From a virus (Duplodnaviria; Caudoviricetes), in the IMG/VR virus record IMGVR_UViG_3300044641_004951, positions 1 to 63,098 of that record: a DNA stretch of 63,098 bases; one strand, 5' to 3'. The translations under genes and the position numbers were made by a program. The notes under the pieces are model-generated. The model was not told the DNA's origin and made no database searches. It saw only the letters and a program-made list of their open reading frames with translations. Below, piece by piece: positions 59,831 to 63,098 of this stretch; within the stretch, counting starts at the first letter, position 1; each line of letters starts with the position of its first letter.

Positions 59831-60841
59831 TCAATGATTAATTTGCTTCCATACCCTATTGCGTATCTCATTTGTCAATTTGTCGGGTAGAGGTACGTAT
59901 TCTAAATCTAACGCAAGCTGCTTACCACTACGGAAAGCCCAGTCAAAAAACTTAAGGATTTCTTTTGACTCATTTTTATCTTTAGGATTAATATACATCA
60001 GAATGAACGATGCGGTAACTACTGGATACGAATCTTTACCGGGTTGATCTACTAATGATATACCCATCCCAGGCACACTTGCCCAATCGGCGCCAGCAGC
60101 AGCTGCAGCAAAAGTCTCATCACCTGGCATTACAAAGTTGCCCGAACGATTCTGTAAGGCGAGAACGGCGATGTTATTTTTCTTTGCGTATGCATACTCG
60201 ACGTAACCAATAGAACCCTTAATACGTGTAACGTTAGCAGCTACGCCTTCGTTACCCTTACCTCCTACAGATGAGGAGGCCGGCCATTTAACAGCTGCTC
60301 CTTTACCTACACGATCAGACCATTCTTTACTTACTGAACTTAAATAATCAGTCCAGTTGAATGTTGTACCTGAACCATCCGCACGGTGAACTACTGTTAT
60401 GTTGGTATTAGGTAGTGTCTTGCCGGGATTAAGACTAGCAATTTTTGTATCGTTCCATTTAGTAATATTACCAAGAAAAATATCAGCTAGCACCTGACCT
60501 GTAATTCGAAGTTCACCCTTCTTAAAACCGTCTAGATTAAAAATAGGAACTGTCCCTCCAATTATAGCAGGAAACTGAATCATTTTGTCTCTTTCTAGCT
60601 CATCACCAGGGACCGGGGCATCTGTAGCGCCGAATGCAACGGTATTGGCACGTATTTGTCTAATGCCACCAGAAGAGCCTATTGACTGGTAATTAAGTTT
60701 TGTACCGGTAAGCTTACTATATTCTTCAGCCCATTTAGCGTAAATAGGAAAAGGGAATGTAGCACCGGCTCCACTAATAGTAGTATTAGCAAATGCACTG
60801 CAGTAAAAAAATAAGGCAAAAACAGCAAATAGTAATTTCAT
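59831..60841 (-). CDS. pstS: Phosphate ABC transporter substrate-binding protein
   Basis: Signal peptide, GAGATFP, NYQSIGSSGGI, FGATDAP, VHRADGSGTT, GGKGNEGV, GSIGYVEY. Confidence 0.96.
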   Translation of the reverse strand: MKLLFAVFALFFYCSAFANTTISGAGATFPFPIYAKWAEEYSKLTGTKLNYQSIGSSGGIRQIRANTVAFGATDAPVPGDELERDKMIQFPAIIGGTVPIFNLDGFKKGELRITGQVLADIFLGNITKWNDTKIASLNPGKTLPNTNITVVHRADGSGTTFNWTDYLSSVSKEWSDRVGKGAAVKWPASSSVGGKGNEGVAANVTRIKGSIGYVEYAYAKKNNIAVLALQNRSGNFVMPGDETFAAAAAGADWASVPGMGISLVDQPGKDSYPVVTASFILMYINPKDKNESKEILKFFDWAFRSGKQLALDLEYVPLPDKLTNEIRNRVWKQINH

Positions 60842-60887
60842 AAAACTCCTCGTTTGTTACTCGTAATAATATTTAACTGCAAAAAGG

Positions 60888-60905
60888 ATTACGTTTTTAT
60901 GAAAA
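60888..60905 (-). promoter_or_regulatory. Putative Pho box upstream of pstS
   Basis: TTTTCATAAAAACGTAAT has TTCAT and GTAAT half-sites 11 nt apart, resembling CTGTCAT-N4-CTGTCAT. Confidence 0.45.
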
Positions 60906-60981
60906 AAATTTTTAAATATTAAACGTCCTTAATGTGCAACCAAATTATGAATAGAATGAATATGATGCATATCGCCCCAAT

Positions 60982-61137
60982 TTATTCTCCTTTTTCGGTT
61001 TGTGGGTTTTCATCTAAGGCTAGATCATCGAGAAAGTCATAATATTCATTTTTCATTATAACTAACTCAAACCATTTTTGCACTTTTGGATCTGTATAGA
61101 TTGAAGTTGTATCTTCATTATTAGCGGTAGAGGTCAT
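60982..61137 (-). CDS. Small hypothetical protein (51 aa)
   Basis: Not in the ORF track. Manual translation MTSTANNEDTTSIYTDPKVQKWFEL...KGE*, with AAGGA upstream. Confidence 0.45.
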   Translation of the reverse strand: MTSTANNEDTTSIYTDPKVQKWFELVIMKNEYYDFLDDLALDENPQTEKGE

Positions 61138-61148
61138 TACTATCCTTG

Positions 61149-61224
61149 TGGTGCCGCCTCCTGGAATCGAACCAGGTTCACCGGCTCTTCAGACCGGCGC
61201 TATGACCACATCAGCTAAGACGGC
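61149..61224 (-). tRNA. tRNA-Phe(GAA)
   Basis: Cloverleaf; anticodon arm CCGGT-CTGAAGA-GCCGG; GGTTCGATTCC; encoded CCA. Confidence 0.9.
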
Positions 61225-61230
61225 TATTGT

Positions 61231-61305
61231 TGGGCAGACGTTACGGATACGATCCGTTCCCTACGCTTTCACAGAGCGCAATGCTTCCACTACACCAAAC
61301 GCTGC
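61231..61305 (-). tRNA. tRNA-His(GTG), atypical T-arm and acceptor stem
   Basis: GCGCT-CTGTGAA-AGCGT; G-1:C73; T-loop ATCGTAT; encoded CCA. Confidence 0.75.
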
Positions 61306-61313
61306 ACTGTTGA

Positions 61314-61389
61314 TGGTGCTCGGTGAAGGACTCGAACCTTCATAATTCATCTTGTAAGGATGACGGCTTACCTCTCACACCAACCGAGC
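61314..61389 (-). tRNA. tRNA-Val(TAC)
   Basis: GCTCGGT/ACCGAGC acceptor stem, TCATC-CTTACAA-GATGA, GGTTCGAGTCC, CCA. Confidence 0.88.
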
Positions 61390-61998
61390 TAGAATAGATT
61401 CTAATGTTAAGTTTGTACTGTCTAAAATAACAACTTCCACATTATTTTGCTTACAAACAGTTCTTATCTTTTCCTTATCTTTTTGGATCAAAAAATCATT
61501 TTTTGGATCTAAGTATAAATTATATTGTACTAAGAAAAAATCTGGAAAGTACCGTTTTTTTTTGCCATCAATTATGTAATTTAGATGCTTTGGGCGTTTC
61601 CATTCGATTTTATTTTCATCTAATATTTTTGCAACTTTAAATTCGTACGATGATTCTAACCAAACTTTGCCAGCATAAGGAGACTCATACCATCCATGGG
61701 CATGTTTGTTCCTATTACTACCGCCAAATTCTCTTTCTATTGCTATCTTTGATAGCTTCTGTTTTGCTGAATCTGAAATAGGGGTTGTTCTTGGTTTTCC
61801 CTTTGTAGATCTGGAACACTTCTCAGAGGCAACTTTTATTCTCTCATCAGAATCTTTCGTTAGCCCTTTGTTCCATCCTGATCTAGTGCCATTTTTATAC
61901 CCTATATTAGGATTATGACTTCTTCCATCTCCATGCATTCTCCAAAAATGATATTTAACGCTTTTACCTTGTTTATTGCATAAAGGGCATATCTCCAT
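61375..61998 (-). CDS. Free-standing putative homing endonuclease (NUMOD-like DNA-binding region plus PD-(D/E)xK nuclease)
   Basis: N-terminal CPLC..H...H, GWNKGLTKDSDERI, K.KLS motif, ESSYE, RYFPDFFL..YNLYLDPK; sits inside a tRNA cluster. Confidence 0.75.
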   Translation of the reverse strand: MEICPLCNKQGKSVKYHFWRMHGDGRSHNPNIGYKNGTRSGWNKGLTKDSDERIKVASEKCSRSTKGKPRTTPISDSAKQKLSKIAIEREFGGSNRNKHAHGWYESPYAGKVWLESSYEFKVAKILDENKIEWKRPKHLNYIIDGKKKRYFPDFFLVQYNLYLDPKNDFLIQKDKEKIRTVCKQNNVEVVILDSTNLTLESILARLV

Positions 61999-62007
61999 TA
62001 TTTTCTC

Positions 62008-62033
62008 CTTTTTCTTATATTTATAAGAAAAAG
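62008..62033 (-). promoter_or_regulatory. Late promoter TATAAATA (62018-62025) inside a hairpin that reaches into the endonuclease RBS
   Basis: CTTTTTCTTATA-AA-TATAAGAAAAAG inverted repeat; its 3' arm includes the AAG of AAGGAG. Confidence 0.75.
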
Positions 62034-62035
62034 AC

Positions 62036-62069
62036 TAAGGAGGGTGTTCTACCTTTAAACTAAAGAGGC
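62036..62069 (-). pseudogene. 5' half of a tRNA truncated in the anticodon loop (consistent with Val-TAC)
   Basis: GCCTCTT-TA-GTTT-AAAGGTA-GAAC-A-CCCTC-CTTA; no matching 3' half (AAGAGGC-NCCA) is found downstream. Confidence 0.7.
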
Positions 62070-62076
62070 AAATTAA

Positions 62077-62153
62077 TGGAGCGGCTATCCGAATTCGAAT
62101 CGGAACTTAAACCTTGGCAAGGTCTCGTGCTAACCGTTAAACACCATAGCCGC
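62077..62153 (-). tRNA. tRNA-Gly(GCC)
   Basis: GCGGCTA/TAGCCGC, AGACC-TTGCCAA-GGTTT, TCCA end. Confidence 0.9.
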
Positions 62154-62157
62154 GTAT

Positions 62158-62233
62158 TGGAGCGGGTAGGGGGATTCGAGCCCCTCTATTGAAGTTTGGA
62201 AGACTTCCGTGTAACCACAAACACTTTACCCGC
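62158..62233 (-). tRNA. tRNA-Gly(TCC)
   Basis: GCGGGTA/TACCCGC, GAAGT-CTTCCAA-ACTTC, TCCA end. Confidence 0.9.
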
Positions 62234-62242
62234 ATATCGTTG

Positions 62243-62250
62243 TATTTATA
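62243..62250 (-). promoter_or_regulatory. T4-type late promoter within the tRNA array
   Basis: Exact TATAAATA 9 nt upstream of tRNA-Gly(TCC). Confidence 0.6.
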
Positions 62251-62303
62251 TGTTATTCCTTGTTTAAACAAGGGATCTCATTATCTTTTGCATTATCTAT
62301 ATT

Positions 62304-62378
62304 TGGTACGCCCTAAGGGAATCAAACCCCTAACTCAACGTTCGTAGCGTTACGTGATATTCATTTCACCAAAGGCGT
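62304..62378 (-). tRNA. tRNA-Arg(ACG)
   Basis: ACGCCTT/AGGGCGT, TAACG-CTACGAA-CGTTG, CCA. Confidence 0.85.
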
Positions 62379-62382
62379 ATGA

Positions 62383-62457
62383 TGGTGGTCATGGTTGGTA
62401 ACGATCCAACCTTCTCGGCTTATGAAACCGGCCTACATCCTTCTATAGCACATGACC
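62383..62457 (-). tRNA. tRNA with CAT anticodon (Met or Ile2)
   Basis: GGTCATG/CATGACC, CGGT-TTCATAA-GCCG, CCA; atypical D- and T-loops. Confidence 0.75.
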
Positions 62458-62461
62458 ATTG

Positions 62462-62535
62462 TGGTTGCGGAGCCGCTGAATCGAACAGGTCCTGTAGGTT
62501 ATGAGCCTACCGTGCTTCCATCACACTCGCCCGCA
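62462..62535 (-). tRNA. tRNA-Met(CAT), initiator-like acceptor end
   Basis: TGCGG.../CCGCA-ACCA, GTAGG-CTCATAA-CCTAC. Confidence 0.75.
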
Positions 62536-62546
62536 ACTGTATTATA

Positions 62547-62622
62547 TGGCATCCCGGGACGGAGTTGAACCGCCAACCTTGGGTTTTGGAGACCCCTGCT
62601 CTGCCAATTGAGCTACCGAGAT
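62547..62622 (-). tRNA. tRNA-Trp(CCA)
   Basis: AGCTCAATTGGCAGAGC D-arm, GGGT-CTCCAAA-ACCC, GCCA end. Confidence 0.9.
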
Positions 62623-62636
62623 ATTACTTATCTAAA

Positions 62637-62712
62637 TGGCAGGGGATAGAGGATTCGAACCTCTAACCTGCGGGATCAAAACCCGTTGCTCTACCAATTG
62701 AGCTAATCCCCA
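62637..62712 (-). tRNA. tRNA-Gln(TTG)
   Basis: CGGG-TTTTGAT-CCCG, GGTTCGAATCC, GCCA end. Confidence 0.9.
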
Positions 62713-62719
62713 TTAGAAA

Positions 62720-62797
62720 TGGTCCGTGTAGCAGGATTCGAACCTGCGCAATCTCCGCCCCAAACGGAGTGACTTGACCTGACTAGCCTATACACGG
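62720..62797 (-). tRNA. tRNA-Pro(TGG)
   Basis: CTCCG-TTTGGGG-CGGAG, GGTTCGAATCC, CCA. Confidence 0.92.
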
Positions 62798-62803
62798 AAA
62801 AAT

Positions 62804-62877
62804 TGGTGCCCCCACCGTGAATCGAACACGGACCTGATGCTTACAAGGCAACTGCACGACCTTCATGCTACAGGGGC
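62804..62877 (-). tRNA. tRNA-Thr(TGT)
   Basis: GCCCCTG/TGGGGGC, TGC-CTTGTAA-GCA, CCA. Confidence 0.88.
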
Positions 62878-62885
62878 TTTTATAT

Positions 62886-62961
62886 TGGCTGACCGAACTG
62901 GGATCGAACCAGTCTCACACGGATTAACAGTCCGGCCGCACACCGTTGTGCGTTTCGGTCA
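62886..62961 (-). tRNA. tRNA-Asn(GTT)
   Basis: TGACCGA/TCGGTCA, CGGA-CTGTTAA-TCCG, GCCA end. Confidence 0.85.
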
Positions 62962-62973
62962 AAAAATTCTTTA

Positions 62974-63049
62974 TGGTGGACCGAAGGAGAATCGAACTCC
63001 CCACAGGGTGCTTGCAAGGCACTCTCGCCCCCTTGGTACATGCCGGCCC
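62974..63049 (-). tRNA. tRNA-Ala(TGC)
   Basis: GGGCCGG/TCGGTCC with G3:U70, GTGC-CTTGCAA-GCAC, CCA. Confidence 0.88.
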
Positions 63050-63098
63050 ATAATTCTTCCTGCTTACCGAATACAGGGACACCATATCGTTGTGTCGG

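Follow-up and report, generated by a model that had tools for sequence, protein, structure and literature searches.

SegB of phage T4 is a GIY-YIG nuclease encoded within a cluster of transfer RNA (tRNA) genes, and it recognises a motif in the T-psi-C stem-loop (PMC2330249). It targets the tRNA genes of related phages and drives remodelling of that region and its preferential inheritance, and its homologues are statistically associated with tRNAs across phages (PMC2330249, PMC13096335). SegB can also bring about amplification of tRNA segments; escape mutants of T6 carry repeats of tRNA-Tyr and a C-terminally truncated segB, joined by microhomology from the 3' end of segB to the 5' end of the tRNA (PMC13096335). 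In Allomyces atp6 and in Glomus atp6, atp9, cox2 and nad3, an endonuclease open reading frame (ORF) carries a foreign copy of the displaced end of the gene (PMC3630166). Here we analysed a stretch of 63,098 nucleotides (nt) of viral DNA (IMG/VR virus record IMGVR_UViG_3300044641_004951, hereafter the window) from a T4-like freshwater phage, in which a nuclease gene and a complete tRNA-Val(UAC) lie together inside a resident tRNA-Val(UAC) gene.

The window element resembles SegB in being a free-standing nuclease gene in a T4-like tRNA array (PMC2330249, PMC13096335). It differs in enzyme and position: SegB is a GIY-YIG nuclease that sits between genes, whereas the window element combines a zinc finger with a putative PD-(D/E)XK domain like that of T7 endonuclease I, sits in the anticodon, splits its target tRNA and carries a replacement tRNA of the same type. 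With the fungal mobile ORFs it shares a nuclease accompanied by a divergent replacement for the disrupted part, the lack of splicing, and a native remnant that is retained unused and is closer to the allele of relatives than the incoming copy is (PMC3630166). The fungal elements occupy mitochondrial protein genes, encode LAGLIDADG or GIY-YIG enzymes and have the replacement ahead of the ORF with the 3' end displaced (PMC3630166); unlike them, the window element resides in a phage, has a whole tRNA after its ORF, displaces the 5' part and uses a different enzyme family. The element combines SegB-type and fungal mobile-ORF ideas in a phage, with another enzyme family, insertion at the anticodon and a whole-tRNA patch.

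I-Ssp6803I, a PD-(D/E)XK homing endonuclease, is encoded in a group I intron of a cyanobacterial tRNA-fMet gene. The window element is like it in its probable nuclease type and in its position in a tRNA anticodon loop, and differs in that I-Ssp6803I belongs to a self-splicing intron while the window locus has no detectable intron core; no significant match of the nuclease profile to I-Ssp6803I was returned by a profile search of the PDB. The best solved relative of the nuclease domain is T7 endonuclease I, a structure-specific junction resolvase without DNA-reading modules. The window protein adds a finger and a WNKGLTKD/helical module and, judged from sequence comparisons, appears to behave genetically like a site-specific mobile nuclease, unlike T7 endonuclease I. 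No description of a nuclease and a tRNA nested in a phage tRNA gene was found in the literature searched, and the segB-neighbourhood supplement of PMC13096335 might show similar fragments.

Two alleles of one tRNA-Val gene

The resident tRNA-Val(UAC), the next gene after tRNA-Gly(GCC), is broken past anticodon nucleotide 35, and its nucleotides 36-70 are swapped for a 716-nt unit made up of a late-promoter hairpin, the nuclease gene and a complete tRNA-Val(UAC) of divergent sequence. What is left of the old gene at its 5' end is a dead fragment, and the function of the gene is restored at the DNA level, with no splicing, by the new tRNA.

This arrangement was compared over positions 60500-63098 with Logan contigs of four runs (X2, X3, X4, X8) from four studies. 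An X4 contig of 2,458 nt matches the window at 60500-61319 (7 differences in 820 nt) and at 62036-62832 (27 differences in 797 nt, with 3 gaps), and has 34 other letters instead of the 716 nt at 61320-62035; the shorter side of the joint (61319->62036) measures 255 letters. The identical joint and the identical 34 letters were found in X8, with 28 letters on the shorter side. These 34 letters complete the half tRNA of the window into an intact tRNA-Val with the anticodon loop CTTACAA (anticodon TAC/UAC), followed by the stem strand GTGGG and by a T arm with the loop ATCGTTA, a loop that is also present in the tRNA-Met of the window phage. The acceptor 3' strand AAGAGGC, formed by AAGAG and the GC of the window, pairs at 7/7 positions with GCCTCTT and is followed by A73 and CCA. 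No difference falls within the fragment among the differences listed between the window and the empty-site contig. The occupied allele retains only nucleotides 1-35 and the last 6 nt of the resident tRNA.

In the empty allele, CCA runs straight into a spacer and tRNA-His, with neither the nuclease nor a second tRNA-Val, so that the allele without the nuclease also lacks the replacement tRNA-Val. The cassette allele does not contain the 34 letters and therefore cannot have given rise to the empty allele by deletion. The cassette allele was recovered independently in X2, in a 764-nt contig covering 61414-62177 with 1 difference, and in X3. Because the X2 contig spans the arrangement with that single difference, the arrangement is not an assembly artefact. 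Near-identical genomes consequently differ at one site by presence or absence, X4 and X8 being without the cassette and X2 and X3 having it.

Other joints were seen in the same data. In contigs of X2 and X3, the end of tRNA-Gly(GCC) is joined via 20 other letters to a tRNA-His-like sequence (61297->62077) with no tRNA-Val; with 29 letters on the shorter side, this joint may come from another phage. Further joints (61218->62303/62355 and 61376->62720) have shorter sides of at most 29 letters and possibly represent tRNAs of other phages.

The half tRNA, 34 nt long and separated from tRNA-Gly(GCC) by a spacer of 7 nt, has the acceptor strand GCCTCTT, U8 and a D arm of 4 base pairs (bp) with A14, G18, G19 and A21, and ends with the anticodon-stem strand CCCTC and the loop start C-T-T-A. 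It was scored with a covariance model trained on 110 phage tRNA 5' halves, used in place of an earlier nhmmer profile of tRNA 5' halves that was too weak (3 orphan matches). Positions 62038-62069 reached 24.1 bits (E=0.0058 over 472,861 bases, both strands), inside the range of 18.6-30.8 bits obtained by the real tRNAs of the window in the same search. An exact search of IMG/VR with the D-arm 20-mer (tRNA nucleotides 6-25) gave 5 matches, all five lying in register inside tRNAs called by ARAGORN, and the same kind of search with the whole 34-nt fragment gave no matches. No 3' half of the fragment was found inside the window, and no intron family was detected at E<=10 in 60900-63098. The base after A35 is G in the window, which would allow TAG as the anticodon of the fragment, and C in the empty-site allele, where the anticodon is TAC. 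Assignment of the fragment to tRNA-Leu(TAG) was rejected, because the Leu(tag) tRNAs that related phages carry have an unlike D arm and because position 36 is C in the empty allele. The fragment is now a pseudogene.

The hairpin begins one base past the tRNA break and carries in its top the motif TATAAATA, which we take to be the T4-type late promoter motif. The 3' arm of the hairpin pairs half of the Shine-Dalgarno sequence (GGAG, 62008-62005). All 10 copies of TATAAATA in the window lie on the minus strand, which is the coding strand, several of them just upstream of the starts of structural genes. The nuclease ORF overlaps the incoming tRNA-Val by 15 nt, which encode its last 4 residues and the stop, the TGA being nucleotides 13-15 of the tRNA. 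Fragment and complete tRNA-Val are identical at 23 of 34 positions. A tRNA-Val of the incoming type also occurs in three other phages (L123, L124, L126), with compensating changes in the acceptor and T stems. Those three copies lie in large-phage arrays and have the same D arm, anticodon arm and variable loop; no nuclease homologue is present in the fetched loci. The coordinates of all features are collected in Table 1.

Table 1. Features of the tRNA-Val locus, ordered along the minus strand.
Feature	Position	Strand	Description and evidence
tRNA-Gly(GCC)	62077..62153	-	Upstream neighbour and left homology flank; ARAGORN, Rfam; in nuclease-plus and nuclease-minus alleles
Displaced 5' part (tRNA nt 1-35) of resident tRNA-Val(UAC)	62036..62069	-	Sequence, covariance model, empty-site allele
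Cassette, 716 nt	61320..62035	-	Hairpin/promoter, nuclease ORF and incoming tRNA-Val nt 1-70; missing from empty-site allele
Hairpin, 12 bp	62007..62034	-	Starts one base past the tRNA break; -10 kcal/mol, z=-1.9
TATAAATA late-promoter motif (presumed)	62018..62025	-	Top of hairpin
Nuclease ORF, 207 amino acids	61375..61998	-	ATG at 61998; own start, Shine-Dalgarno sequence and promoter motif
Incoming complete tRNA-Val(UAC)	61314..61389	-	ARAGORN; Rfam RF00005 49 bits (gathering score 29)
GCACCA common to resident and incoming tRNA-Val	61314..61319	-	Right-hand junction; empty-site match resumes at 61319
tRNA-His(GUG) and tRNA-Phe(GAA)	61149..61304	-	Right homology flank; covered by empty-site contig

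The initial annotation of this DNA, made by a model from the letters alone, had described a half tRNA (62069-62036) stopping in the anticodon loop at a promoter hairpin, an endonuclease ORF running 15 nt into a complete, sequence-divergent tRNA-Val(TAC) with its TGA inside that tRNA, and neither a 3' half nor an intron core. All of these elements were recovered by the analyses above. It had further proposed that a unit of nuclease and tRNA destroyed a resident tRNA-Val(TAC) and supplied a replacement, and the two alleles with their junctions bear this out. The contigs without the ORF, from two studies, carry the intact GCCTCTT...CCCTC-CTTAC tRNA-Val that had been predicted for relatives, the anticodon of the half tRNA proved to be TAC and no other, and the downstream tRNA-Val comes with the nuclease.

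The nuclease and its relatives in phage tRNA arrays

The ORF encodes a C2H2-type zinc finger (C4, C7, H17), a WNKGLTKD module (residues 42-49) and a putative PD-(D/E)XK domain. In an alignment of 30 homologues, the N-terminal finger has the form C-x2-C...H...(C/H) and is followed by the nearly invariant WNKGLTKD and by helical repeats. Residues E119, P152-D153 and D164-x-K166 align with the catalytic E, PD and ExK residues of T7 endonuclease I, D153 being invariant in all 30. Searched against the PDB, a profile of the 30 homologues aligned about 75 residues, the PD and ExK motifs among them, with T7 endonuclease I (1m0d, 2pfj; E=2.3e-9). Bax1 and PvuRts1I are also listed by this search, and C2H2 zinc fingers were matched with an E of about 1e-8. 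The sequence matched phrog_20223 (6.2e-12, unnamed) and phrog_15137 ('endonuclease', 1.5e-6) in PHROGs, and no GIY-YIG family was among its Pfam or PHROG matches. The AlphaFold model has a mean predicted local distance difference test score of 84.9, with values of 92-98 across the nuclease domain (residues 101-207). A Foldseek search with the whole multi-domain model gave top matches that are all PD-(D/E)XK proteins (Bax1, TnsA, Vsr, I-Bth0305I, T7 endonuclease I). By motif reading of the alignment, the nuclease domain of some homologues is a Vsr/DUF559-like variant, preceded by the same N-terminal modules. Compared with L007, L002 and L144, the window ORF appears to have lost about 3 native C-terminal codons to the tRNA.

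Protein-guided scans of IMG/VR and metagenomes yielded 41 viral and 80 metagenomic loci, 95 of them distinct when the window is included, with 25-47% identity. tRNAs are present in 46 of the 59 distinct loci that cover the nuclease domain. Where downstream sequence was readable (55 loci), the ORF of 21 loci ends within the next tRNA on the same strand, its stop codon being 6-39 nt into that tRNA, and in 6 more the tRNA begins 1-13 nt past the stop; in many loci the stop codon is supplied by the conserved tRNA bases U8-A9-G10. An orphan tRNA 5' half was found by reading just upstream of the promoter or ORF in 14 of 30 loci with enough upstream sequence, 9 of the 14 being matches of the covariance model as well. 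In all nine model-matched loci, the anticodon bases left in the 5' half are those of the downstream complete tRNA (Val TA; Ile GAT three times; Pro TG twice; Phe GA; Asn GT twice), and in the remaining five the break lies at or before base 34. Fragment and complete tRNA are divergent in every pair, with 17-27 of 33-36 positions identical in the nine pairs other than that of the window.

Five or six loci retain more of the outer gene. In L024 and L158 (Pro), in L184 and also L026 (Val), and in L181 and L185 (Asn), a matching outer 3' half is present on the far side of the nuclease and inner tRNA, where it belongs to no called tRNA and can form 7/7 acceptor pairs with the outer 5' half; these are tRNA genes nested in tRNA genes. 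The intron mode of ARAGORN yields many chimeras in arrays, and 13 candidates were examined. L164, L134, L175, L174 and L197 were rejected as nested, the 3' part lying in a called tRNA or the 5' part itself being a called tRNA, and the intron-mode call for L026 was discarded for its use of the wrong 5' half.

The clades of the nuclease track the tRNA type, with 14 label changes on the tree, a number as low as this being reached by 2 of 1000 label shuffles. This association is only suggestive because kin share labels. The Ile, Pro and Val clades have 96-100% support, and the nuclease of the window falls outside the Val clade. Homologues do not travel specifically with a tRNA-Val, a point that the initial annotation had suggested checking; each clade has its own tRNA type, such as Ile, Pro, Val or Phe.

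Several loci show related arrangements. A complete tRNA of the same type is present on both sides of the nuclease in L161 (Lys/Lys) and L166 (Asn/Asn). Two tandem orphan 5' halves precede one nuclease gene in L004 (2869-2938) and in L134 (81-150), which suggests successive insertions at one place. At 2635-2946 of L149, just upstream of a nuclease homologue, a 238-nt insert without this nuclease interrupts a tRNA at its GTT-type anticodon loop. Orphan 5' halves also occur away from this nuclease family, in L007 (5376-5408), L015 (5359-5391), L026 (6455-6487), L184 (5116 and 6147) and L186 (2895 and 5119), some of them with TATAAA-like motifs after them; the design may be shared by other nuclease families.

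Among cultured phages, tblastn found the nuclease family in phages of Acinetobacter, Stenotrophomonas and Bacillus. In Acinetobacter phage Apostate (NC_049491, L213, 1126-1868), a tRNA(CAT) is split within its anticodon by a 666-nt insert that consists of 38 nt with the TATAAATA hairpin and the ORF, whose TAA stop is completed by tRNA bases 37-38. The 3' half of the tRNA follows immediately after the ORF, both halves are intact and there is no replacement tRNA. Phage Stupor (L214) has an intact tRNA(CAT) between flanks 99.0% identical to those of Apostate. Among the matches listed, 9 Acinetobacter phage records have the nuclease, and 29 of 40 are two- or three-piece matches spanning about 470-585 nt, as expected without the nuclease. 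The Acinetobacter homologue is labelled 'putative endodeoxyribonuclease I, Holliday junction resolvase' in GenBank. About 0.7 kb upstream of the split tRNA(CAT), Apostate has a gene for an RNA ligase / 2',3'-cyclic phosphodiesterase. Stenotrophomonas phage Bhz51 (OR797040, L212, 1201-1827) encodes a full-length homologue (31.5% identity), unannotated in GenBank, whose ORF starts 15 nt after a tRNA-Ile and overlaps an annotated tRNA-His.

Explanations of the locus and their consequences

A free-standing homing-endonuclease cassette inside a phage tRNA gene explains the locus best, and we give this explanation a probability of about 0.8. Presence and absence at one site, recurrence with many tRNA types, and the zinc finger and helical modules are marks of a homing endonuclease and not of a core resolvase. 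The nuclease would recognise the intact resident allele around the anticodon arm and cut it in a co-infecting phage without the cassette, and the break would be repaired from the cassette-bearing genome, copying the cassette. The left repair arm would be tRNA-Gly and the 5' half, and the right arm the last bases of tRNA-Val together with tRNA-His and tRNA-Phe. A genome bearing the cassette would be immune to its own nuclease: its site is interrupted, and all that the incoming tRNA has in common with the target is the 7-nt loop. Transcripts reading through the array are probably kept from being translated by the hairpin, so that the nuclease would be made only from late transcripts starting inside the hairpin. 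The intron and seg ORFs of T4 use such a logic of hairpins and late transcripts.

Several points weigh against this explanation or against parts of it. We infer site-specific cleavage, homing and a 'cleavage-resistant' incoming tRNA from sequence. The anticodon and the promoter share no homology that would account for the first left-hand junction. No close donor was found, since the nearest relatives of the window nuclease (43-49% identity) go with a different tRNA or with no tRNA. The Logan contigs are metagenomic and the X8 joint has the short side given above; provided that contig and window have the same 5' half, there is one U-U mismatch in the anticodon stem of the completed empty-site tRNA. 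The stability of the hairpin exceeds that of its shuffles only moderately, with 12 of 200 folding equally well (z=-1.9), and the 10 copies of TATAAATA in the window do not exceed the 9.7 expected by chance. The Pfam matches of the single sequence are sub-threshold (DUF7487 at 19.2 against 27 bits, Phage_endo_I at 14 against 29.1), a TnsA-like match likewise, and the Foldseek matches are weak, the best having E=0.0099 and none reaching 0.001.

The locus could instead be the remnant of a nuclease-driven tandem duplication of the tRNA-Val and nuclease unit through microhomology, with the upstream copy decayed to its 5' half. The T6 repeats of SegB and tRNA-Tyr, in which the ORF runs into the tRNA as it does here (PMC13096335), offer a precedent, and the apparent shortening of the window ORF and the paired tRNAs of L161 and L166 agree with it. 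Such a duplication predicts tRNAs that were identical at the start, against which stand the 23/34 identity in the window and the similar divergence of the nine other pairs. The fragment, moreover, matches the cassette-free allele, other phages have tRNAs of the same type as the complete one, and the empty allele holds one tRNA-Val, of the fragment's type only, so that we regard duplication as unlikely. We think similarly little of a one-off illegitimate recombination involving an immobile nuclease, be it a domesticated resolvase like T7 endonuclease I or a defence or anti-defence gene. That the best solved relative of the domain is a junction resolvase, and that GenBank names the Acinetobacter homologue as one, would suit such an origin; a single event does not account for presence and absence between near-identical genomes at two unrelated sites (window phage and Acinetobacter phages), for the recurrence of the architecture with many tRNA types and matching anticodons, or for the fusion of a sequence-reading zinc finger and helical modules to the nuclease.

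A degenerate group I intron in the anticodon loop of tRNA-Val, which later lost its ribozyme core and 3' exon, appears very improbable. The insertion point in the anticodon loop, the Apostate nuclease lying precisely between two tRNA halves, and I-Ssp6803I as a precedent for a PD-(D/E)XK enzyme in a tRNA-fMet intron are in its favour. However, no intron family was detected in the window region searched above, nor at E<=1 in the homologue loci L213, L024 and L158, and in the window, as in five or six nested loci, what comes after the ORF is a whole tRNA instead of a 3' exon. The 666-nt insert of Apostate, being 38 nt and the ORF, leaves no room for an intron core. Chance resemblance or faulty assembly might be suspected from a fragment of only 34 nt that neither ARAGORN nor Rfam calls; we consider the probability of this negligible, given a covariance score in the range of real tRNAs, the reproduction of the arrangement in X2 and X3, and the completion of the fragment into a full tRNA with 7/7 acceptor pairs in other contigs.

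Returning to the homing-endonuclease cassette, we tentatively propose that it belongs to a widespread, undescribed class of phage homing elements, namely zinc-finger/PD-(D/E)XK nucleases at tRNA anticodons with a divergent same-type tRNA patch, a generalisation that is quite possible and on balance still doubtful. If it is true, tRNA alleles themselves would be the cargo of a selfish nuclease, and such elements would drive rapid turnover and horizontal exchange of phage tRNA arrays. Since the anticodon stem and D arm of the incoming tRNA are different, they could incidentally bring in alleles that evade the tRNA-cutting defences of the host. Expression of the nuclease may be coupled to tRNA processing through the conserved run of the ORF into the tRNA: the stop codon would be lost when the tRNA is cut at its 5' end, and the transfer-messenger RNA (tmRNA) of the phage itself (57726-58132) could matter in that case.

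Phage tRNA arrays vary greatly between close relatives for reasons that are poorly understood. The two alleles described here provide direct population evidence that a nuclease cassette swaps one tRNA allele for another in a single step, and the homologous loci provide comparative evidence that a whole nuclease family does the same for many tRNA types. Because a spare copy comes along, the design allows insertion into a gene that looks essential with no need of an intron or intein. It also explains the orphan pieces of tRNA 5' and 3' ends that phage arrays contain and that annotation pipelines overlook or label wrongly. The Acinetobacter phages with and without the insert offer an experimentally tractable homologue for homing, target recognition and the fate of the split tRNA, and the nucleases would be new long-site DNA cutters with modular reading domains.

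The source phage and its tRNA array

The source is a 63-kb IMG/VR virus record with an estimated completeness of 37%. T4-type proteins encoded in the window include a baseplate wedge subunit, a tail tube cap and a gp32-like single-strand-binding protein, and the public runs containing the stretch are lake and freshwater metagenomes. A minus-strand cluster of at least 12 tRNAs (ARAGORN) lies at the right end of the window. The tmRNA, also on the minus strand, specifies the tag peptide ANDERFLAAA.

An auxiliary gene for the phosphate-binding protein PstS (59831-60841, minus strand) adjoins the tRNA array. Syntenic relatives were sought through this neighbour in 80 IMG/VR loci with PstS relatives of 62-73% identity, and their arrays were not syntenic, showing little synteny overall. 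The lone hint among the 80 was a Val(tac) directly after a Gly(gcc) in L072 and L074.

Two tRNA-like sequences on the minus strand (62466-62534 and 62977-63050) were missed by ARAGORN. One of the pair has a CAT anticodon and an Rfam tRNA score of 25.4 bits, under the gathering score; the other resembles tRNA-Ala(TGC), with an odd D arm and 20 bits with the tRNA-Sec model. The 70-nt gap between tRNA-Arg and tRNA-Gly(UCC) (62234-62303, minus strand) contains a second TATAAATA (62250-62243) and a small hairpin with no ORF, and may either serve the tRNAs downstream as a late promoter or mark the place of an insert since lost.

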